Source: Caldilineaceae bacterium
Lineage (GTDB): Bacteria; Chloroflexota; Anaerolineae; Caldilineales; Caldilineaceae
Direction: 5' to 3'
Length of the DNA stretch: 64,000 nt
NCBI GenBank assembly: GCA_965214715.1
Contig: OZ243971.1
Span: 2,256,326 to 2,320,325 of the forward strand
Shown: piece by piece, positions 19,841-42,596 of the stretch
Layout: the number at the start of each line of letters is the position of its first letter
Position numbering within the stretch: position 1 is the stretch's first letter
Program-made: the position numbers and the translations under genes
The notes under the pieces: generated by a model
The model's input: the letters and a program-made list of their open reading frames with translations, nothing else
Databases searched by the model: none
Told to the model about the DNA's origin: nothing

Positions 19841-20160
19841 CGCGTAGCCTCCTGTGGTGTCCAGACCGGGGCGTCAATGCCGACTGGCTCCGCTGCGTGT
19901 TGCCGGTGGGCAGTGAGCGTGCGTTACCGGGACAGAGCGGCCTGCCCTGGCGGACCCAGCCCCGCGGCTGTGCTCGGTGTGGGGCGTCACCCCAAGCAAC
20001 GCTGGCCGGACTGCAGAAACTCCCGGGTCTCTTCTGTCCAGGCGGTGGAAAGGCCTGCCAGGAGCTGGCTCCACAGCCCATGGCCGTCACAGGGCGCTCC
20101 GCTCTTTGGCCGCTGCACTCCCGGCGCCCTACCGCTTGCGCCAGGATGGCAGCGGCACCG

Positions 20161-21741
20161 TCACTCCCGCACCGCAAATTCCGCTTGCCAGAGGGTCCGT
20201 CGTTCGGCGGGGAGCCATTGACCGACGCGCATGCGCACAATCTCGTACTCCGGCAGCGGAATGATCACAAGGCACTGCCCGTCGGCGTGCATCCCGCCCG
20301 CCTCCCGGAAACGAAAATCCCGATTGTCGAAGCCGTATGCCCGCCGCGCCCGGGGCAGGCTGTCCAGATCGGCCGGCACCAGGTGCAGGACGAACGGCGC
20401 CTCGGTATCCGCCGGCGCACACGGCTCCCGGAAGTAGATCAACCGGTTGTCGCGGTGATAGACCGCAAATGCGGCGCGGACAACCGGCACCTGGGCCGCG
20501 AGCGCCTGAGAGGTCCTCTCGATGAAAGCCGCCGCAGTCGGGCGCACCGCAAATTCCGCTTGCCAGAGGGGTGGCTCGCCGGAGCGCCGTTGGCCGACGC
20601 GCATGCGCACAATCTCGTACTTCGGCAGCGGGATGATCACAAGGCACTGCCCGTCGGTGTGCATACCGCCCGCCTCCCGGAAACGAAAGTCCCAATTGTC
20701 GAAGCCGTATGCCCGCCGCGCCCGGGGCAGGCTGTCCGGATCGGCCGGCACCAGGTGCAGGATGAACGGCGCCTCGGTATCTGCCGGCACACACGGCTCC
20801 TTGAAGTAGGTCAACCGGTTGTCAATGAGATAGACCGCAAATGCGGCGCGGACGACCGGCTCCTGGGCCGCGAGCGCCGAGATGAAAGCCGCCTCGGTCC
20901 GGATCCTGACATACTGAAACCCCATCAACCCGACACTGGCCACCACGACTCCCGCGCACACCGTCCGCCAGGCCGGCCCCGCGGGCGCCGTGTTCCGGCC
21001 GCCCAGCCCCAGCCCCAGTTCCAGCGCATAGCCCAGGCAGAGAAAACCGAACAGATACTCCTGCGCTTCATTGATCTTCCCCTGGTGGGGATTGTACTCG
21101 TTCACATAGGAGACCGCCAGCACCAGCAGCCCCGTGGTGGCGATGAGCATGAACCACCCGGGTTGTCGGGCCAGCAGCGTGTAGCAGGCCAGCAGCAGCA
21201 ACAGATGTTTCCCGCGCCTGAAAAGGAAGTCCGGATCCAAGGCAACAAACGGGATGTCGGGATTCGCAGAGTAGGCCACCGTACTCGGATAGTAGGCCAG
21301 CATCACCAGAAAGCCCAGCAGCAGGGTGGCGTACCAGACGGTGTTTCTCACTACATTATTACCTCTGGAACCAATGTTGTGCACGTTGAATTCGCCCTGG
21401 AAGTTCACCGCCTGCAGGAAACCGGGCGTCGCGAAGCCGAAGAGCCGTTGCCCCCAACTGATTTCCTCGCCCGCACCGAACACCAGGGCGAGGCCCCCCA
21501 GCACATAGACGCCGCGCCGTCCCAGGCCCCGCTCCCTCCCGGCGGCGAACAACAGGACGAGACCGGCCAGACCCAGCCAGACCGCAGTGAGATTCTCCAC
21601 CACATTGTCTTCCTGCACCAGCGCCCTGTATTGCGGCGCGTCGGCCGCGAGAAGATAGCCCAGGCCAAGGACGTTCAGACACAGGCCCAGATAGCCCAGG
21701 AGGGCAACTTGCCCCCCCCCCCCCCCATTATGCGCCACCAT
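20161..21741 (-). CDS. polytopic membrane protein (about 8 TM, GAGEEISWGQRLFGF loop) with two tandem C-terminal copies of the family domain (paralogue A)
   Basis: 526-aa intact frame starting ATG GTG GCG CAT AAT + G15. About 90% identical to the inverted copy at 22287..23936. The opposite-strand ORF 19801..21819 is a GC shadow. Confidence 0.8.
   Translation of the reverse strand: MVAHNGGGGGQVALLGYLGLCLNVLGLGYLLAADAPQYRALVQEDNVVENLTAVWLGLAGLVLLFAAGRERGLGRRGVYVLGGLALVFGAGEEISWGQRLFGFATPGFLQAVNFQGEFNVHNIGSRGNNVVRNTVWYATLLLGFLVMLAYYPSTVAYSANPDIPFVALDPDFLFRRGKHLLLLLACYTLLARQPGWFMLIATTGLLVLAVSYVNEYNPHQGKINEAQEYLFGFLCLGYALELGLGLGGRNTAPAGPAWRTVCAGVVVASVGLMGFQYVRIRTEAAFISALAAQEPVVRAAFAVYLIDNRLTYFKEPCVPADTEAPFILHLVPADPDSLPRARRAYGFDNWDFRFREAGGMHTDGQCLVIIPLPKYEIVRMRVGQRRSGEPPLWQAEFAVRPTAAAFIERTSQALAAQVPVVRAAFAVYHRDNRLIYFREPCAPADTEAPFVLHLVPADLDSLPRARRAYGFDNRDFRFREAGGMHADGQCLVIIPLPEYEIVRMRVGQWLPAERRTLWQAEFAVRE
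20164..20905 (-). repeat. in-gene tandem duplication, two units of about 375 bp (about 125 aa) encoding the C-terminal domain
   Basis: CGCACCGCAAATTCCGCTTGCCAGAG recurs at 20168 and 20543, and the units align throughout at roughly 90% identity. Confidence 0.85.
21712..21726 (-). repeat. C15 (G15 on the coding strand) homopolymer, codons 6-10 of paralogue A
   Basis: Counted directly from the sequence. Encodes GGGGG. Confidence 0.95.
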
Positions 21742-21891
21742 GTTCTGCCCATGGCCCGCCCGGGTGCTCCGCAGGGAGCGTACCGTGATTCATTCTGCAT
21801 GGTCCCGCCTGTGGGGTGAGGCATCCAGTGCACCGGAGCCCATCATACCGCGGAAGCATCCACTCCCGGCACTGCAGCATTGTACCTGTAT

Positions 21892-22100
21892 CCCGATATC
21901 TCCATGGCCCAGACTGGATCCGCCGCGGTCCAGGGGCAGAGCCATCCGGGCCCGGATCGCCTGTACCTCTTTTTTGCCCCTGTACAGATCGATGTAAAAA
22001 TCCGACTGCAGGATGAGTGGCCAACTGAGTGGTCAACAAAGCATGGCGGCAATGCGTTGGGTCAGGGGACTGTCGGGATTTCCAGGACATTGTGCAGGTC
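21892..22100 (-). pseudogene. fragment of a second AstE/AspA-like gene in the inverted-repeat spacer
   Basis: The minus strand reads ...CPGNPDSPLTQRIAAMLC*..LILQSDFYIDL.., matching ECPGNPDGTLTQRIADVLCRQLILQSDFYIDL of the intact gene. A 33-nt stretch is identical to 19418-19450. Contains an in-frame stop and an internal deletion. Confidence 0.6.
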
Positions 22101-22286
22101 CTGGCATATACTGGAGGGCCGCGGCCCAGCGTCCGCGCTGCGGTGCCGGGAGTGGATGCCTCCACGGTATTGGACCGGTAGAACCGCGGGATGCCTCACC
22201 CCACAGGCGGGACCATGCAGAATGAATCACGGTACGCTCCCTGCGGAGCACCCGGGCGGGCCATGGGCAGAACATGGTGGCGCATA

Positions 22287-23936
22287 ATGGGGGGGGGGGG
22301 GGGGCAAGTTGCCCTCCTGGGCTATCTGGGCCTGTGTCTGAACGTCCTTGGCCTGGGCTATCTCTTCGCGGCCGACGCGCCGCAATACAGGATGCTGACG
22401 CAGGAAGACAGGGTGGTGGAGAATCTCACTGCGGTCTGGCTGGGTCTGGCCGGTCTCGTCCTGTTGTTCGCCGCCGGGAGGGAGCGGGGCCTGGGGCGGC
22501 GCGGCGTCTATGTGCTGGGGGGCCTCGCCCTGGTGTTCGGTGCGGGCGAGGAAATCAGTTGGGGGCAACGGCTCTTCGGCTTCGCGACGCCCGGTTTCCT
22601 GCAGGCGGTGAACTACCAGGACGAATTCAACGTGCACAACATCGTCATCGGTGCGCAGGATTGGAATAGAAGAGCCGTCTGGTACGCCACCCTGCTGCTG
22701 TGCACGGCCACCGGCGCCGCTTTCCTGTGCCGCAAGGATACCCTCTGCGGGCTCCCCTTGCCCTCCATGCCCCTGCTGCTGGGCTTTCTGGTGATGCTGG
22801 CCTACTATACGACTTCCCAAAGCGGATTTATTTTGGATCCGAACTTCCTTTTCATGCGCGGGAAACATCTGTTGCTGCTGCTGGCCTGCTACACGCTGTT
22901 TGCCCGACAACCCGGATGGTTCATGCTCATCGCCACCACGGTGGTGCTGGTGCTGGCGGTCTCGTATGTGAACCGGTACAACTCCCGGGCCATCGACCTT
23001 AACGCGATGGTGGAAGTGCAGGAGTATCTGTTCGGTTTTCTTTGCCTGGGCTATGCGCTGGAACTGGGGCTGGGGCCGGGCGGGCGGAACACGGCGCCCG
23101 CGGGTCTGGCCTGGCGGACGGTGTGCGCAGGAGTCGTGGTGGCCAGTGTCGGGTTGATGGGGTTTCAGTATGTCAGGATCCGGACTGAGGCGGCTTTCAT
23201 CGAGAGGACCTATCAGGCGCTCGCGGCCCAGGAGCCAGTCGTCCGCGCCGCATTTGCGGTCTATCTCCGCAAAAACCGGTTGACCTACTTCAAGGAGCCG
23301 TGTGTGCCGGCAGATACCGAGGCGCCGTTCATCCTGCATCTGGTGCCAGCTGATCTGGACAGCCTGCCCCGGGCGCGGCGGGCATACGGCTTCGACAATC
23401 GGGATTTTTACTTCCAGGGAGCGGGCGGTGTGCACGCCGACGGGAAGTGTTTTGTCATCATCCCGCTGCCGAAGTACGACATTGTGCGCATGCGCGTCGG
23501 CCAACGGCTCCCCGCCGAGCAACGGGCCCTCTGGCAAGCGGAATTTGCGGTGCGCCAGACTGCGGCGGCTTTCATCGAGAAGACATCTCAGGTGCTCGCG
23601 GCCCAGGTGCCGGTTGTCCGCGCCGCATTTGCGGTCTATCTCCGCGACAACCGGTTGATCTACTTCAAGGAGCCGTGTGCGCCGGCAGATACCGAGGCGC
23701 CGTTCGTCCTGCATCTGGTGCCGGCCGATCCGGACAGCCTGCCCAAGGCGCGGCGGGCATACGGCTTCGACAATCGGGATTTTCGTTTCCGGGAGGCGGG
23801 CGGGATGCACGCCGACGGGCAGTGCCTTGTGATCATCCCGCTGCCGAAGTACGAGATTGTGCGCATGCGCGTCGGCCAATGGCTCCCCGCCGAGCAACGG
23901 GCTCTCTGGCAAGCGGAATTTGCGGTGCGGGAGTGA
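22287..23936 (+). CDS. polytopic membrane protein with two C-terminal family domains (paralogue B)
   Basis: Intact frame. With G16 it is served by the ATG at 22287 (ATA-ATG-G15) or by in-frame ATGs back to 22191. The ATGGTG start used by paralogue A (22274) is out of frame here. Confidence 0.8.
   Translation: MGGGGGQVALLGYLGLCLNVLGLGYLFAADAPQYRMLTQEDRVVENLTAVWLGLAGLVLLFAAGRERGLGRRGVYVLGGLALVFGAGEEISWGQRLFGFATPGFLQAVNYQDEFNVHNIVIGAQDWNRRAVWYATLLLCTATGAAFLCRKDTLCGLPLPSMPLLLGFLVMLAYYTTSQSGFILDPNFLFMRGKHLLLLLACYTLFARQPGWFMLIATTVVLVLAVSYVNRYNSRAIDLNAMVEVQEYLFGFLCLGYALELGLGPGGRNTAPAGLAWRTVCAGVVVASVGLMGFQYVRIRTEAAFIERTYQALAAQEPVVRAAFAVYLRKNRLTYFKEPCVPADTEAPFILHLVPADLDSLPRARRAYGFDNRDFYFQGAGGVHADGKCFVIIPLPKYDIVRMRVGQRLPAEQRALWQAEFAVRQTAAAFIEKTSQVLAAQVPVVRAAFAVYLRDNRLIYFKEPCAPADTEAPFVLHLVPADPDSLPKARRAYGFDNRDFRFREAGGMHADGQCLVIIPLPKYEIVRMRVGQWLPAEQRALWQAEFAVRE
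22289..22304 (+). repeat. G16 homopolymer at the start of paralogue B
   Basis: Counted directly. One G longer than the mirror copy. Confidence 0.95.
23188..23933 (+). repeat. in-gene tandem duplication, two units of about 375 bp encoding the C-terminal domain
   Basis: AAFIERTYQALAAQEPVVRAAFAVY...AEFAVRQ is followed by TAAAFIEKTSQVLAAQVPVVRAAFAVY...AEFAVRE. Confidence 0.85.
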
Positions 23937-23946
23937 CGGTGCCGCT

Positions 23947-24146
23947 GGATCCTCAGCATCTGCAGGATACCATGGTGATCGTGGCGTAACCCATATGCCC
24001 GCCTTTAAGGCCAATCCCCGCACCAGTCCGGTGGAGACGCCTGCACCTGGCGCGGGCCCGATATCCCCATGGCCCAGACTGGATCCGCCGCGGCCCAAGG
24101 GAGAGCCACCCGGGCCCGGATCGCCTGCACCTCTCTTTGCCCCTGT
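23947..24146. pseudogene. mosaic AstE/AspA-like gene fragments
   Basis: 23947-24035 is the reverse complement of 19533-19622 of the intact gene (DPQHLQDTMVIVA*..HMPAFKANPRTSPV). 24057-24146 repeats the 21892-21983 piece in direct orientation. Confidence 0.55.
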
Positions 24147-35662: not shown

Positions 35663-36940
35663 ATGCTGATCGAATTTTCCGTAGCAAACTTCAAGTCCAT
35701 CAAGGAAGAGGCCTGCTTGAACATGACGGCCGGACCTGGAAGAGAGCACAGGAAAATACATCTGGTGGTGCCTACACTGACGGCGAGAAGTCAACCTTCC
35801 CCCTTGGTCCGTACGGCGGTGATTTTCGGCGCCAATGCAGCGGGAAAGTCAAATTTGCTGGATGCCTTGAGGGTCATGAAGAACATCGTCCGCACATCCA
35901 GCCAAGGTCCTGCGGAACTTCCCGTAATCCCCTTCAAGTTTGATTTTGACAGCAAGAACCAAAGCACTGTGTTTGAAGTCAAGTGTATTGTCCAGGGAAT
36001 CCGTTTTATCAATATGGTTTTAGTGTCACCAAGGACAGGGTGCATGACGAATGGCTCTTTGCCTGGCCGCGGGGAAGAGTGCAAACCTGGTTTGAACGCG
36101 ACGGTCCCCACTGGAAATTGGGAGACAAGCTGACCGGCGACAAGGAGCTCTGGAAACGCACTACCCGCCCGGATGCCTTGTTCCTTTTCCACGGCCGTGT
36201 CTCTGAACAGCGAACAGTTGCGGCCACTGTATGACTGGTTTCACCATACAGTGCAGTATCCCACACCCCACGGCTGGACAGATGCGCTCTCACTTAAATT
36301 CTCACTTAAATATTGTCAAGACGAGCGCAAGCAGGCAGTCATTGATTTCTTGCATTCTGCAGATCTGGGCATTGCAGACCTGCGCATTACAAAAAAAGAA
36401 TTTTCGCCTGACATGCTCCCTGCTACCATATCCGTGGAAATGAAGGAAGAACTGACAAGAGGACTGGCGAGCAAGATGATCGTGGAGGATCTTTTTCTAA
36501 GACATGACACGGGCCTTGGCTACTCCACGGAACTGGATATGAAAGCGGAGTCGGCCGGCACGCAAAAGATCTTTTCGCTGGCGGGTCCTTGGCTTGAGGG
36601 CTTAAGCAATGGAAATGTGCTTGTAATCGACGAATTGGACAACAGCCTGCATCCCCAGCTGGTCGCGTTTTTGGTGGAGCGGTTCCACGACCCGGCAGTG
36701 AATACAAAAGGAGCCCAGCTCATATTTTCCACTCACGACGCTGCCCTCCTGAGTCAGGACAGATTCCGCAGAGATCAGATCTGGTTTTGTGAACGCAACA
36801 CATGACAGGAAACCCATCTGTATCCCTTGACGGATTTCCGTCCTCGCAAGGATCTGGAAAATCTTGAGCGCTCCTGTCTGGCAGGGCGATACGGAGCTCT
36901 GCCTTACACGCGACCGACAACCGTCCTGCATAGCCATTGA
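35663..36940 (+). pseudogene. AAA_21/abortive-infection-type ATPase: two frameshifts and one in-frame TGA
   Basis: Walker A IFGANAAGKSNLLDAL, YQYGFSVTKDRVHDEWLF in a second frame, VLVIDELDNSLHP...IFSTHD back in the first frame. TGA at 36803-36805 precedes the conserved tail LAGRYGALPY. Confidence 0.75.
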
Positions 36941-36943
36941 ACT

Positions 36944-37108
36944 ATGGCGAGACGCCCACCCCGTCCCCAGAGCAGAAGGCGGCAACCAGTCCGCGAAGCA
37001 TACGCACGCGTCCTCATTCTCTGCGAAGGGAAGAAAACCGAGGTGACCTATTTCAATGATCTCGTGGCACATTACAGTCTGAGCACAGCCAGCATAATAA
37101 GAGTGTAA
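36944..37108 (+). pseudogene. RloB-like protein, N-terminal 54 codons only
   Basis: ARVLILCEGKKTEVTYFNDL matches the RloB-like (Toprim-type) N-terminal motif. The frame ends at ...ASIIRV*, where high-G+C DNA begins. Confidence 0.6.
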
Positions 37109-37153
37109 AATAGGGATACTCCGGTAGTCCGGGGTTGGCCTGGCACCTATCCG

Positions 37154-37230
37154 GGGCGGATAGCTCAGTTGGTTAGAGCACTTCGTTTACACCGAAGGGG
37201 CCGGGGGTTCAAGTCCCTCTCTGCCCACCA
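37154..37230 (+). tRNA. tRNA-Val (anticodon TAC), CCA encoded
   Basis: Acceptor GGGCGGA/TCTGCCC, D stem GCTC/GAGC, anticodon stem CTTCG/CGAAG with loop TTTACAC, T arm GGGGG-TTCAAGT-CCCTC, then A-CCA. Confidence 0.9.
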
Positions 37231-37641: not shown

Positions 37642-37652
37642 GGGGGGGGGGG
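37642..37652 (+). repeat. G11 homopolymer immediately after an ATG (37638), 100 nt upstream of the annotated start of paralogue C
   Basis: Counted directly. Context CTG ATG A G11 ATATGCGC. Confidence 0.95.
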
Positions 37653-37752
37653 ATATGCGCTCTCCCCGGCTGCACAATGCCCTGTTCGTCCTGTTTGTGG
37701 GCAGCATTCTGGTGTACAGACGCCGGCCAGCGGTCGCCACCCCGGACGGGAT

Positions 37753-39942
37753 ATGGCGCTGGGCCTGGCCTGCGTACCCTGGCTGGCCCTGCTGGGCTGG
37801 ATGACCGCCCTGACCTGGTTTCTGACGGATGATGCCTTCATCAGTTTCCGGTACGTGCGCAACCTGCTGGAAGGCCACGGTCTCGTCTTCAACCCCGGCG
37901 AGCGCGTCGAGGGGTACTCCAACTTTCTGTGGATCCTGGAACTGGCCGCCATCTGGCGGGTGGGGGGCGTGGAGCCCGAAGTTGCATCCCGGTGGCTGTC
38001 GGTCGTCTGCACCGTGGGCACCCTCGGCACCCTGCTGTGGTGGATGGCGCACCAGCCTGCGGTGGGACACCGCGGGCTGGTGATCTGGATGGCGCTGGGA
38101 CTGGTGTGCAGCAGCGCGACGTTCGCCGTGTGGACCTCGGGAGGCGGCCTGGAAACGCGGCAGTTCAGCCTGTTTGTGGTGGTGGCCGTGGTGTGCCTGG
38201 GCCTCTACCGTCACCACCCCGCGGGGCTGCTGGCCGCGTCGCTCAGTCTGGCGGGGGCGGCCCTGACCCGGCCCGAGGGGCCGCTGCTGGCTCTCTGCTG
38301 TTTTGGCTGGTTCCTCGGCCAACGGATGGCGGTGGCCGGCCGGGAGGGGCTGCACCGGGAGGGCCGGCGGGCCCTCCTCTGTCTGGTCGGACCGTGCGTG
38401 GCCCTGGTCGGGGCCCATTTCCTGTTCCGGTATGCGTACTATGGCGAGTGGCTGCCCAACACCTACCATGCCAAGCACGTCCGGGCGTGGTACGAGTCCG
38501 GCTTCCGCTACCTGTGGGCGGCGGCCCTGGAGACGGGGCTGTACCTGTGGCTGCCCCTGGCCTACATGGCCGCGCGGGCGCAGTGGCGCCAGCACCGGGA
38601 TGGCACGTTCGCGCTGGGGCTGGGGCTGGTGGGTACGCACATGGCCTATGTGATGCACATGGGGGGCGACCATTTCGAGTACCGTCCGCTGGACTTCTAC
38701 TGGCCCCTGCTGGCCTTCCCCGCCGCCACGGGTCTGGCGGGCCTGGCCGCGCGGATTGTGACCCGGGACCCGGGGCGGCCCCGCGCGCCCTTCCGGCGTT
38801 GGGGGGGGAGTGTGGACACAGGCGCCCGGGCCATGATGCTGATGCTCTTCGCGCCGGTCTGGTTCTATGCCAGTGCCCTGCAGGGGCTCCTGTTATATGA
38901 GGGGAGCCGGATCCATGAGTACATTCCGAGACTGCACATTGAGCTCGATCATGCAAATGCCCGGTGGTTACGGGTCGCCCCCGGCATGCCCATGCTGACC
39001 GCGGTTTCCAACGATCTGCGCCGCTTGATGGCGGTGCATAAGGTCGCCTCCCCTTTCACGCTACACCGCGCGTTCGCCAACCAGCAGATCCGAAGATGGA
39101 AGCCATACTACGTGCATATGGAGAGGGGCGTGATGCCGGATGATGCCCTGATGGCCGGCGGTGCCCTCGGCATTCGCTTCTACTACCTGCCGGACCTGGC
39201 GGTCATTGATCTCCACGGCTTGACCGACGCGACGATCGCGCGCCATCCGGTCACGATCCCCAACCACCAGCGCGCCATGGCCCATGACCGCAGCCCACCG
39301 GCCGGGTACCTGGAGGCCCGGGGCGTCAATTTCACGGTATACCCGGCGGCGGCCAGCGCCTCGGCCGCGTTGCGCCGCGCGGAGTACGCCCTGCCCGTGG
39401 GACCCGACCTGTGGATGCCGTTCGATGCCCCGGAGCGACAGTGGGTCCTCGATCGCTTTGCCCGCCAGAACCTGGTGACCTATATATGCCTGACAGGCCC
39501 TCCGGACCCGGCCGCGGGGAGCGCGTGGGGTGTGGACTGTGCGCCAGAGGACCGGATCGTGTGGGCCGGGGCGGACGCCTGGCGATCCCGTCTGCTCCGG
39601 GACCGCCGGCCCGTCATCCAGTCCGCCTGGGACGTGTATCACCTGGGCGACCGTCTGGTCTACGTCAGGGAACCCTGCGGACCGGCAGATGTGGCTGCCT
39701 CCCCCTTCTTCCTGCATGTGGTCCCGGTCCATCCCCAGGACCTCCCCGTCCCGCGCCGGTCCTATGGCTTTGACAACCTTGACTTCCACTTCCCGCAATA
39801 CGGCGTGATGTTCCGCGGATGGTGCCTGGCGGAGGTCCCGCTCCCGGCCTACCGGATCCGGAGCCTCCGCACCGGCCAGTATGTACGCCGGGAGGACAGT
39901 TTCCAGCATGTCTGGGAAGGCGAATTCCGCCATGTCCCATAG
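37753..39942 (+). CDS. GT-C-like polytopic membrane protein (DDAFISFRY...NPGERVEGYSNFLW loop) with one C-terminal family domain (paralogue C)
   Basis: 729-aa intact frame from the internal ATG at 37753. The frame stays open upstream to the TGA at 37639-37641. 96-97% identical to the next copy by eye. Glycosyltransferase assignment rests on a recalled motif only. Confidence 0.8.
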   Translation: MALGLACVPWLALLGWMTALTWFLTDDAFISFRYVRNLLEGHGLVFNPGERVEGYSNFLWILELAAIWRVGGVEPEVASRWLSVVCTVGTLGTLLWWMAHQPAVGHRGLVIWMALGLVCSSATFAVWTSGGGLETRQFSLFVVVAVVCLGLYRHHPAGLLAASLSLAGAALTRPEGPLLALCCFGWFLGQRMAVAGREGLHREGRRALLCLVGPCVALVGAHFLFRYAYYGEWLPNTYHAKHVRAWYESGFRYLWAAALETGLYLWLPLAYMAARAQWRQHRDGTFALGLGLVGTHMAYVMHMGGDHFEYRPLDFYWPLLAFPAATGLAGLAARIVTRDPGRPRAPFRRWGGSVDTGARAMMLMLFAPVWFYASALQGLLLYEGSRIHEYIPRLHIELDHANARWLRVAPGMPMLTAVSNDLRRLMAVHKVASPFTLHRAFANQQIRRWKPYYVHMERGVMPDDALMAGGALGIRFYYLPDLAVIDLHGLTDATIARHPVTIPNHQRAMAHDRSPPAGYLEARGVNFTVYPAAASASAALRRAEYALPVGPDLWMPFDAPERQWVLDRFARQNLVTYICLTGPPDPAAGSAWGVDCAPEDRIVWAGADAWRSRLLRDRRPVIQSAWDVYHLGDRLVYVREPCGPADVAASPFFLHVVPVHPQDLPVPRRSYGFDNLDFHFPQYGVMFRGWCLAEVPLPAYRIRSLRTGQYVRREDSFQHVWEGEFRHVP

Positions 39943-42188
39943 CCAGCGAGGCGTACAGACGCCGACCAGCGGTCGCCACCCCGGACGGGGCCTGGTGCTG
40001 GGCCTGGCCTGCGTACCCTGGCTGGCCCTGCTGGGCTGGATGACCGCCCTGACCTGGTTTCTGACCGATGATGCCTTCATCAGCTTCCGGTACGTGCGCA
40101 ACCTGCTGGAAGGCCACGGTCTCGTCTTCAACCCCGGCGAGCGCGTCGAGGGGTACTCCAACTTTCTGTGGATCCTGGAACTGGCCGCCATCTGGCGGGT
40201 GGGGGGTGTGGGGCCCGAAGTTGCGTCCCGGTGGCTGTCGGTCGTCTGCACCGTGGGCACCCTCGGCACCCTGCTGTGGTGGATGGCGCGCCAGCCCGCG
40301 GTGCCCCACCGCAGGCTGGTGACCTGGATGGCGCTGGGACTGGTGTGCAGCAGCGCGACGTTCGCCGTGTGGACCTCGGGGGGCGGCCTGGAAACGCGGC
40401 AGTTCAGCCTGTTTGTGGTGGTGGCCGTGGTGTGCCTGGGCCTCTACCGGCACCACCCCGCGGGGCTGCTGGCCGCGTCGCTCAGTCTGGCGGGGGCGGC
40501 CCTGACCCGGCCCGAGGGGCCGCTGCTGGCTCTCTGCTGTTTTGGCTGGTTCCTCGGCCAACGGATGGCGGTGGCCGGCCGGGAGGGGCTGCACCGGGAG
40601 GGCTGGCGGGCCCTCCTCTGTCTGGTTGGACCGTGCGTGGCCCTGGTCGGGGCCCATTTCCTGTTCCGGTATGCGTACTATGGCGAGTGGCTGCCCAACA
40701 CCTACCATGCCAAGCACGTCCGGGCGTGGTACGAGTCCGGCTTCCGCTACCTGTGGGCGGCGGCCCTGGAGACGGGGCTGTACCTGTGGCTGCCCCTGGC
40801 CTACATGGCCGCGCGGGCGCAGTGGCGCCAGCACCGGGATGGCACGTTCGCGCTGGTGCTGCTTCTGCTTGGTACGCACATGGCGTATGTGATGCACATG
40901 GGGGGCGACCATTTCGAGTACCGTCCGCTGGACTTCTACTGGCCCCTGCTGGCCTTCCCCGCCGCCACGGGTCTGGCGGGCCTGGCCGCGCGGATTGTGA
41001 CCCGGGACCCGGGGCGGCCCCGCGCGCCCTTCCGGCGTTGGGGGGGGAGTGTGGACACAGGCACCCGGGCCATGATGCTGATGCTCTTCGCGCCGGTCTG
41101 GTTCTATGCCAGTGCCCTGCAGGGGCTCCTGTTATATGAGGGGAGCCGGATCCATGAGTACATTCCGAGACTGCACATTGAGCTCGATCATGCAAATGCC
41201 CGGTGGTTACGGGTCGCCCCCGGCATGCCCATGCTGACTGCGGTTTCCAACGATCTGCGCCGCCTGATGGCGGCGCATCAGGTCGCCGCCCCTTTCACGC
41301 TACACCGCGCGTTGGCCAACCAGCAGATCCGAAGATGGAAGCCATACTACGTGCATATGGAGAGGGGCGTGATGCCAGATGATGCCCTGATGGCCGGCGG
41401 TGCCCTCGGCATTCGCTTCTACTACCTGCCGGACCTGGCGGCCATTGATCGGTTCGGCTTGACCGACGCGACGATCGCGCGCCATCCGGTCACGACCCCC
41501 AACCACCAGCGCAGGATGGCCCATGACCGCAGCCCACCGGCCGGGTACCTGGAGGCCCGGGGCGTCAATATCACGGTATACCCGGCGGCGGCCAGCGCCT
41601 CGGCCGCGTTGCGCCGCGCGGAGTACGCCCTGTCCGTGGGGCCCGACCTGTGGATGCCGTTCGATGCCCCGGAGCGACAGTGGGTCCTCGATCGCTTTGC
41701 CCGCCAGAACCTGGTGACCTATATATGCCTGACAGGCCCTCCGGACCCGGCCGCGGGGAGCGCGTGGGGCGTGGACTGTGCACCTGAGGACCGCATCGTG
41801 TGGTCCGGGGCGGACGCCTGGCGGTCCCGTCTGCTCCGGGACCGCCGGCCCGTCATCCAGTCCGCCTGGGACGTGTATCACCTGGGCGACCGTCTGGTCT
41901 ACGTCAGGGAACCCTGCGGACCGGCAGATGTGGCTACCCCCCCCCCCATTCTTCCTGCATGTGGTCCCGGTCCACCCCCAGGACCTCCCTGCCCCGCGCC
42001 GGGCCTATGGCTTTGACAACCGCGACTTCCGCTTCCCGCAATACGGCATGATGTTCCCCGGGGGGTGCCTGGCGGAGGTCCCGCTCCCGGCCTACCGGAT
42101 CCGGAGCCTCCGCACCGGCCAGTATGTACGCCGGGAGGACGACGGTTTCCAGCATGTCTGGGAAGGCGAATTCCGCCCTGCCCCATAG
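39932..42188 (+). pseudogene. GT-C-like membrane protein, paralogue D, frame broken at a C11 run (phase-OFF state or pseudogene)
   Basis: ATG 39932 overlaps the stop of paralogue C (ATGTCCCATAG). The frame runs to 42016. The C-terminal domain (FFLHVVPVHPQDLPAPRRAYGFDNRDF...EGEFRPAP*) continues in the +1 frame to 42188. Confidence 0.75.
41937..41947 (+). repeat. C11 homopolymer inside paralogue D
   Basis: GCT A C11 A TTC TTC CTG, compared with GCT GCC TCC CCC TTC TTC CTG in paralogue C. Confidence 0.95.
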
Positions 42189-42259
42189 GCAGCGAGGAGG
42201 AAGGAAGCCGGCCAGCGGTCGCCATCCCGGACGGGGCCTGGCGCTGGGCCTGGCCTGCG

Positions 42260-42596
42260 GGCCCTGGGAGGTGGTGCACGGCGGTCCTGCACCCAAAGCG
42301 CTGGTGCAAAAGGCCAGGCAATTGCGCAAGCAGGAAACCCGCCGGGGAGAACAATACGACAGAGTCTATTGCGTTTTTGATCGCGACGACCATGAAAGCT
42401 TTGAGGCCGCCAGTGCCTTCCTGATTATTGCAAAGGGATGCAGGGACTGTTCAAGACCCTCAACAGCAGCCTGGAAAGGGCCCTGCGGAATGCCGTCAAC
42501 GTGGCAAAAGACGCAAGCACAACAGGTGATCCCAACCCCTCCACGGAAGTCCACGAGCTGGTGAGATTTCTGCAGTCCCTTAAACCTGCTGCATGA
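42260..42596 (+). pseudogene. RloB-like protein, remaining fragments (internal deletion and frameshift)
   Basis: EVVHGGPAPKALVQKARQL...YDRVYCVFDRDDHESFEAA, then in another frame (42438..42596) ...DPNPSTEVHELVRFLQSL*, resembling the RloB-like middle and C-terminal motifs. Confidence 0.55.

Follow-up and report, generated by a model that had tools for sequence, protein, structure and literature searches.

An undescribed C-terminal domain family on putative envelope-modifying membrane enzymes of Caldilineaceae and other bacteria

We analysed a stretch of 64,000 nucleotides (nt) from contig OZ243971.1 of a Caldilineaceae bacterium (assembly GCA_965214715.1, positions 2,256,326 to 2,320,325 of the forward strand), referred to here as the window, in which four membrane protein genes, A to D, end in one or two copies of a shared domain. 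This domain is an undescribed, large family, and our preferred reading, to which we give a probability of roughly 55%, is that on the extracytoplasmic side it serves envelope enzymes as a module for binding or positioning. As we picture it, between one and ten tandem copies sit at the C-terminus of membrane enzymes acting on the cell envelope, mostly of the GT-C type. By binding a ligand or setting the enzyme's position, the domain would keep the enzyme close to its acceptor polymer, a glycan or glycoprotein of the wall or periplasm, and several copies in a row would extend the reach or increase the avidity. The gene family would be large, spread horizontally and expanded by tandem amplification. 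Because slippage-prone G/C runs occur at the 5′ ends of many members, envelope modifications would probably be turned on and off at random across the system.

A hidden Markov model (HMM) built from 34 family members was run on the six-frame translation of the whole window. The scan returned exactly six copies and no further remnants, the number claimed by an earlier note made from the sequence alone, although the coordinates given there, 20161–23936, cover A and B only. Domain E-values for the five intact copies were 1e-44 to 3e-47, and the two halves of copy D scored separately (7e-8 and 4e-34); a chance origin of the six copies is excluded by these values. The genes and copies are as follows.

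20161–21741, minus strand: gene A, 526 amino acids (aa), scaffold 1 followed by two domain copies
20539–20898, minus strand: domain copy A1, HMM E-value 1e-44, linker helix and predicted β-sandwich
20164–20538, minus strand: domain copy A2, HMM E-value 3e-46
22191–23936, plus strand: gene B, longest open reading frame (ORF) 581 aa, alternative starts at 22215 and 22287, scaffold 1 with nine predicted transmembrane (TM) helices followed by two domain copies
23184–23558, plus strand: domain copy B1, from the HMM scan
23559–23933, plus strand: domain copy B2, from the HMM scan, used for the AlphaFold2 model
37753–39942, plus strand: gene C, 729 aa, predicted AftB-like GT-C protein with DD at residues 26–27, a soluble region and one domain copy
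39568–39939, plus strand: domain copy C, HMM E-value 9e-47
39881–42188, plus strand: gene D, tandem duplicate of C, read in two frames owing to a C11 run
41807–42185, plus strand: domain copy D, HMM positions 8–45 in one frame and 45–120 in another
41937–41947, plus strand: C11 run within copy D; C has GCCTCCCCC at this site, and C10 would be in frame

Two units of 120–125 aa in tandem end A, and likewise B, while a single one ends C. Diverged copies had been described at the ends of both C and D; that of C is intact, and that of D opens in the frame of the long ORF, is broken by the frameshift in the C11 run and continues in another frame to a stop at 42186–42188. The four A/B copies are mutually 83–93% identical and share 43–50% identity with the C and D copies, which are 90% identical to each other. 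Copies A2 and B2 are the closest in the A/B set (93% at the protein and 95% at the DNA level), and the second copy of P0267, a third scaffold-1 paralogue with two domain copies encoded on the same 4.34-Mb contig outside the window, is 89% identical to A2 and 89% to B2. For the first copies, identity to all other copies is uniformly 80–85%, and A1–B1 (84%) is no closer than A1–A2 (83%) or A1–B2 (85%). The argument originally offered, that first copies pair with first copies, is thus only partly right; the proposal that the internal duplication predates the split between A and B still follows, but from the second copies only.

The domain comprises a core of ∼113 aa preceded by a linker helix of ∼12 residues. 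An AlphaFold2 model of copy B2, computed from the 34-sequence alignment, reached a mean predicted local distance difference test score (pLDDT) of 92.9 and a predicted TM-score (pTM) of 0.85. DSSP assigned an N-terminal helix followed by 7–8 strands to this model, and the predicted fold is a β-sandwich. When the 34 members were scanned against Pfam-A (2025) at E ≤ 10, no family match was found, the best results being Subtilosin_A in three of the 34 (E = 0.007) and DUF7054 in one (E = 0.25). Short Subtilosin_A matches occur in P0135 and P0137 as well as in those three members of the alignment (A2 in our numbering of alignments), spanning 16–17 residues where positions are shown; their E-values go down to 3e-11 in P0135, and they are probably low-complexity artefacts. 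NCBIfam (20.0, 2026), PADLOC and PHROGs contained nothing covering the domain; for A to D, the four collections together yielded only the AftB-like match in C and D discussed below and, in B, one short match to a PHROG of unknown function (E = 2.7e-5, 24 residues within copy B1). A domain-profile search of PDB sequences gave no match (best E = 0.62), and a search of the same sequences with three unassigned scaffolds gave nothing useful. Foldseek returned no match to the domain at E ≤ 0.001 in either the PDB (best E = 0.016, TM-score 0.43) or BFVD.

The top Foldseek matches were fibronectin type III (FnIII) domains of cytokine receptors and immunoglobulin (Ig)-like domains of LacZ (TM-score 0.41–0.46, E = 0.016–0.08, 6–16% identity), and a possible likeness to the Ig-like/FnIII class is read from the strand count together with these non-significant scores. 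Accessory domains of this class, such as those of the Amuc_1438 glycopeptidase (8df2) and LacZ, resemble the new domain in being 7–8-strand β-sandwiches of ∼110 residues, but the motifs FFLH, GFDNLDF and IRTGQ and a pair of cysteines are specific to the new family. Searches of a collection of 5.8 billion proteins returned no relative with an assigned name, Pfam domain or UniRef source. The earlier description of the domain as unassigned thus holds across Pfam-A, NCBIfam, PADLOC, PHROGs and PDB sequences, and two of the checks suggested with it, an HMM comparison with Pfam and a structure prediction followed by Foldseek, gave no family and a confidently predicted β-sandwich with no significant match in the PDB or BFVD. 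The occurrence of similar C-termini on cyanobacterial GT39-like proteins, mentioned in the earlier note, could not be confirmed, the listed relatives all coming from unannotated ENA, NCBI, JGI and Logan assemblies. That the domain is a diverged member of a described family, its link missed by the tools, is very improbable given the empty Pfam-A, NCBIfam, PDB-profile and Foldseek results and the lack of a named relative in any source.

To gauge the size of the family, we searched 1.84 billion cluster representatives exhaustively with the HMM and recovered 2,482 at E ≤ 1e-3, of which 947 had E ≤ 1e-30. Architecture was read from the best 150 of the 2,482 matches, where the domain is C-terminal in all but two and occurs in 2–10 tandem copies behind either 5–15 predicted TM segments or one hydrophobic segment at the N-terminus; across the family, copy number per protein ranges from 1 to 10. 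The N-terminal parts sort into several groups, for which Pfam supplies the names PMT/PMT_2, GtrII, DUF2079, Wzy_C and arylsulfotransferase (ASST), with a weak GDSL match on one further, GDSL-like host type. With the AftB-like GT-C proteins added, these hosts agree with the proposal that the domain is carried by envelope-modifying enzymes. Profile comparison with hhalign joined five scaffold groups, including that of C, into a GT-C-like superfamily (85–94% probability over 230–440 columns), and a sixth through one member group (86%), leaving scaffold 1 apart. In 199 of 228 cases, the best-matching copy outside a domain's own gene sat on a scaffold of the same group, so domain and scaffold move together. 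Some 2,500 clusters at 50% identity are without name, profile or structure, and a definition of the domain would allow thousands of large membrane proteins, at present blank, to be annotated.

The range of hosts bears on whether the domain could instead be an acceptor or carrier that the attached enzyme modifies, by glycosylation or otherwise, in cis or in trans. PMT-like scaffolds modify proteins, and the domain is always either covalently joined to an enzyme or anchored beside the membrane, as such an acceptor might be. However, its consensus contains no conserved Ser/Thr-rich or sequon-like stretch, and it is also found on scaffolds that are not glycosyltransferases (ASST, GDSL-like); we find this explanation hardly credible.

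Four independent computational lines of evidence place the domain outside the cytoplasmic membrane, as the earlier note had expected. First, of 737 unique copies, 99.3% have both cysteines and 726 contain exactly two, a conservation that has the pattern of a structural disulfide, and the pair probably forms one disulfide. Second, where a polytopic scaffold is absent, the protein opens with positively charged residues and then a hydrophobic segment, which ends in ...ALAYA (signal-peptidase-like) in P0190 and in ...LLAC (lipobox-like) in P0154. Third, homology with AftB puts the C-terminal part of C in the periplasm. Finally, Lys/Arg-rich loops alternate in the scaffold-1 alignment such that the N-terminus of proteins like B is predicted to lie inside and the C-terminus outside after nine helices; in the full-length model of B, TM9 runs on as a single helix (298–337) into the first linker.

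This helix, continuing straight from TM9, together with the helix that opens each copy, the variable copy number and the generic β-sandwich fold, would also suit a passive stalk or spacer, an Ig-like filler that binds no ligand and keeps enzyme and wall a set distance apart. Against this stands the conservation of polar residues across the 737 copies, which exceeds what a spacer needs: D35, G96 and Q97 are kept in 91–98% and T95 in 84%, and H43, R56, N63 and D65 in 71–76% (motifs FFLH, GFDNLDF and IRTGQ). We therefore regard a mere spacer as quite unlikely and favour a domain that binds or positions.

The two scaffolds that carry the domain in the window are unrelated, as previously stated (hhalign probability 0.6%), and scaffold 2, that of C and D, is by its sequence a predicted AftB-like GT-C glycosyltransferase, in line with its earlier description as GT-C-like. 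Residues 3–270 of C align with AftB (chain 9dlf; E = 1.4e-5), a terminal β-(1→2)-arabinofuranosyltransferase reported to cross the membrane with 11 helices, to end in a periplasmic domain and to bear its catalytic DD motif, with Asp62 as a catalytic residue, in the first periplasmic loop. The DD segment of C aligns with ADDGLIVLRTVRNLLAGNGPVFNAGERVEANTS of AftB, its DD falling on the catalytic DD, so that C has the acidic DD/DxD motif that characterises GT-C enzymes at the tip of the first extracytoplasmic loop, after TM1. The proteins share DDxxIxxRxVRNLLxGxGxVFNxGERVE, and the C-terminal part is placed outside the membrane in both. However, the alignment covers no more than the first half of the TM domain, AftB does not contain the new domain, and the NCBIfam AftB model (NF041481) matches C over profile positions 10–283 of 633 only, with 32.6 bits (E = 2e-8) against a cut-off of 1050. 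C is therefore a relative within the superfamily rather than an AftB orthologue, and its likeness falls short of the equivalog level.

A parallel in architecture is the C-terminal carbohydrate-binding module (CBM) of EmbC from the mycobacterial GT-C arabinosyltransferases, which is reported to be extracytoplasmic and proposed to hold the acceptor polymer (PMC3044687). Like the new domain, it is a soluble extracytoplasmic module appended C-terminally to a polytopic GT-C enzyme. The two have no detectable sequence or fold similarity, and the new domain differs in being smaller, in its invariant cysteine pair, in occurring in up to ten tandem copies and in its presence on scaffolds other than GT-C. 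An outer-face accessory sandwich on GT-C-type enzymes is of a kind already known, while the domain family itself is new.

Genes C and D belong to an array (37711–42282) with a tandem unit of 2239 nt and 96–97% nucleotide identity, whose third unit ends after its first ∼146 nt; this organisation is consistent with growth by unequal crossing-over.

42137–42282, plus strand: start of the third, truncated GT-C unit, joined to the 3′ part of an RloB-like gene

Genes A and B make up a large inverted duplication (20150–23947), in which the two arms, 90–100% complementary, flank a unique spacer. The arms are 100% complementary between 21712–21826 and 22189–22303 and 97% complementary between 21374–21726 and 22290–22642, and the register shifts by one base between these two pairs, at a G tract. 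In the close relatives at L074 and L075, the paralogues stand in direct tandem instead of this inverted arrangement.

21827–22188, no strand: unique spacer between the A and B arms, 362 nt, common divergent upstream region

The syntenic locus in the nearest GTDB genome (Caldilineaceae contig OZ243985.1, a metagenome-assembled genome (MAG); L001/L002) retains only remnants with one domain copy each, P0001 (177 aa) and P0274 (354 aa).

Scaffold 1 had been described as an eight-helix protein, which is correct for A only, as nine TM helices are predicted in B, in P0267 and in 45 other aligned homologues. A has eight because 26 residues (CTATGAAFLCRKDTLCGLPLPSMPLL), forming half of the TM4/TM5 hairpin around residues 143–170, have been lost in frame; the missing segment holds the nearly invariant C163, A169, G179, P181, P183 and S184 (P0269 numbering), and the topology of A downstream of the gap would therefore be inverted. 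The invariant residues of scaffold 1 all fall on the predicted outer face, namely E64, D65 and E69; G111, E112, E113, W116, G117, Q118 and R119; H141 and N142; and E267 and E270. This acidic and polar cluster suggests that scaffold 1 has an enzymatic active site. No Pfam or NCBIfam model matches scaffold 1, the full-length model of B has no Foldseek match in the PDB at E ≤ 0.001 and none to its TM part, and hhalign gives a probability of only 0.6–6% against the six GT-C-like groups, so a profile likeness to GT-C scaffolds is lacking. We regard the A/B scaffold as a new 9-TM family, which would be defined along with the domain. Stand-alone proteins of 220–270 aa (among them P0346, P0350, P0369 and P0374, of 240–270 aa) correspond to the scaffold-1 core without the C-terminal domain and share the motif EDGxVENLT ... 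GAGEEISWGQR ... HNL; their hosts are Cesiribacter, Cribrihabitans and Anaerolineales/Chloroflexota, where they are annotated as hypothetical only.

The window contains seven runs of at least eight identical bases, six of which lie in or beside A to D. These include G8 runs in both C and D, the C11 run listed above and three further G runs at or upstream of 5′ ends.

21712–21726, minus strand (coding strand of A): G15 run directly after MVAHN, encoding GGGGG
22289–22304, plus strand: G16 run at the 5′ end of B in the same place as that of A, one base longer, with flanks 97–100% identical
37642–37652, plus strand: G11 run ∼100 nt upstream of the start of C

With G15, as in A, a reading from MVAHN runs in frame into the body of the protein; with G16, as in B, MVAHN loses that frame, and the body is read instead from starts in a second frame (MQNESRY.../RIM). 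The same site carries G11 in five paralogues from two other assemblies of close relatives; at this length the body cannot be read from either start, and gene callers placed the protein starts farther downstream. Across 1.03 Mb from 63 related loci, the 5′ zones of domain genes account for 10.6% of the sequence and contain 31 of the 51 G/C runs of at least 9 nt (binomial p = 5e-18). Such a run is found in 31 of 167 domain genes at these loci, with lengths of 9–33 nt, on six scaffold groups and in Dehalococcoidia, Binatia, Caldilineaceae, Gammaproteobacteria and Latescibacteria (including loci L004, L005, L016, L022, L026, L028, L042, L045, L052, L058 and L064). Neighbouring paralogues have runs of unequal length (G16/G18; G12/G19/G15; C25/C20/C28; C10/C11), which put each gene in or out of frame.

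Poly-G/C contingency loci are known in the surface-glycan genes of Neisseria, Haemophilus, Campylobacter and Helicobacter. Their hallmark, a homopolymer of at least 8–9 nt in the 5′ coding or promoter region that sets the frame, is found in the window in the G15, G16, G11 and C11 runs. As in those loci, the family has pure G/C runs of 9–33 nt in the 5′ coding part or upstream of envelope-modifying genes, where length, as read from the assembled sequences, sets the frame and varies between near-identical paralogues and between assemblies. The hosts differ, being uncultured Chloroflexota, Binatia, Gammaproteobacteria and Latescibacteria with genomes of ∼2–6 Mb, as do the enzymes, which are polytopic GT-C or 9-TM proteins rather than cytoplasmic GT-A or GT-B. 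Judged from these sequence features, the tracts are probably the signature of slipped-strand phase variation that switches the genes at random. If switching were confirmed, surface-glycan phase variation, known from a few small-genome pathogens, would extend to uncultured Chloroflexota, Binatia and other symbionts, and there would be a testable handle on the surface variation of such bacteria inside a host.

A pattern scan of one genome per GTDB species gave 449 confirmed stretches. The best 64 loci all lie in MAGs, from Caldilineaceae, Dehalococcoidia, Binatia, Latescibacteria, Gammaproteobacteria, Bryobacterales, Candidatus Entotheonella and Nitrospirales, and several loci per genome are frequent among them. 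This mix of taxa, including Candidatus Entotheonella, a contiguous block of accessions and a paper in which the same type of circular MAG set was obtained from a sponge suggest that the related MAGs represent a sponge-symbiont community; we found nothing relevant in the literature on GT39 enrichment or on phase variation in sponge symbionts. The related loci, in MAGs of about eight phyla, are co-directional arrays of 2–8 paralogues with one scaffold or a mixture. In a neighbour-joining tree of scaffold 1, sequences from Gammaproteobacteria, Entotheonella, Nitrospirales, Binatia, Latescibacteria and Bryobacterales are interleaved and Chloroflexi show lineage-specific bursts, which suggests that the genes moved between phyla and were then amplified locally. 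The domain marks arrays that are common to several phyla and bear slippage-prone tracts; neither these arrays and their spread nor the tracts and the size of the family had been noticed in the earlier note.

Among 241 million records from JGI metagenomes, we found eight distant relatives, at least two of them from bioreactor or fermentation samples. Those at L068–L073 are single copies at the C-terminus of proteins of ∼320–610 aa, and several JGI relatives lack both cysteines yet keep the YGFDNLDF and TGxY motifs.

A broader and more tentative possibility is that the domain is the shared outer-face module of an unrecognised envelope-diversification system, in which dozens of paralogous enzymes per genome, of GT-C types and the new 9-TM family, transferred across phyla in the same host-associated (probably sponge) community and amplified in arrays, would be switched individually by 5′ tract slippage, giving each cell a different and reversible combination of surface modifications. 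Were this true, variable cell surfaces could aid escape from phages or host phagocytes.

The arrays also bear on a protein–protein docking or self-association module, which would assemble the array-encoded membrane enzymes or tie them to a wall or S-layer protein. Genes with different scaffolds and the same domain cluster together, copies on different scaffolds have a median identity of 54.9% within a genome compared with 46.2% in different genomes, and the closest folds, though weak, are Ig/FnIII-like receptor domains. However, many arrays have a single scaffold, the Foldseek matches are non-significant and no partner gene is kept nearby, so we consider docking unlikely. The neighbourhoods of homologues, which the earlier note had proposed to survey, were examined through 140 flanking ORFs and contained no conserved partner gene; class I methyltransferases (7 of 140) and GT2 glycosyltransferases (2 of 140) were too few to count. 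In the window, the neighbours of the domain genes are ordinary metabolic genes.

Several points weigh against a switched binding or positioning module on the outer face. Sequence and fold searches gave no similarity to a lectin or CBM, Foldseek finding only generic Ig/FnIII-like matches with E-values of at least 0.016 and TM-scores of ∼0.4, and the neighbourhoods indicate no pathway. The putative disulfide is drawn from the conservation of the cysteines across copies. Given the loss of half a hairpin, the domains of A would sit in the cytoplasm, and A may be a decaying copy despite its open frame. As for the tracts, consensus homopolymer lengths in MAGs are error-prone, and the ON/OFF calls and the frameshift in D may be artefacts; the G/C runs could also simply encode poly-Gly or poly-Pro linkers.

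Beside the C/D array lies a broken pair of defence genes (window 35663–37230 and 42283–42560). Its AbiLi/AAA_21 ATPase is split into ORFs 35663–36133 and 36173–36805, and the RloB-like gene is parted into an N-terminal part (RVLILCEGKKTEVTYFNDL) before 37.1 kb and a C-terminal part (YDRVYCVFDRDDHESFEAA) after 42283. Between the RloB-like halves lie a tRNA-Val(tac) gene (37154–37230) and the C/D array, with a G+C content of 0.69 compared with 0.60.

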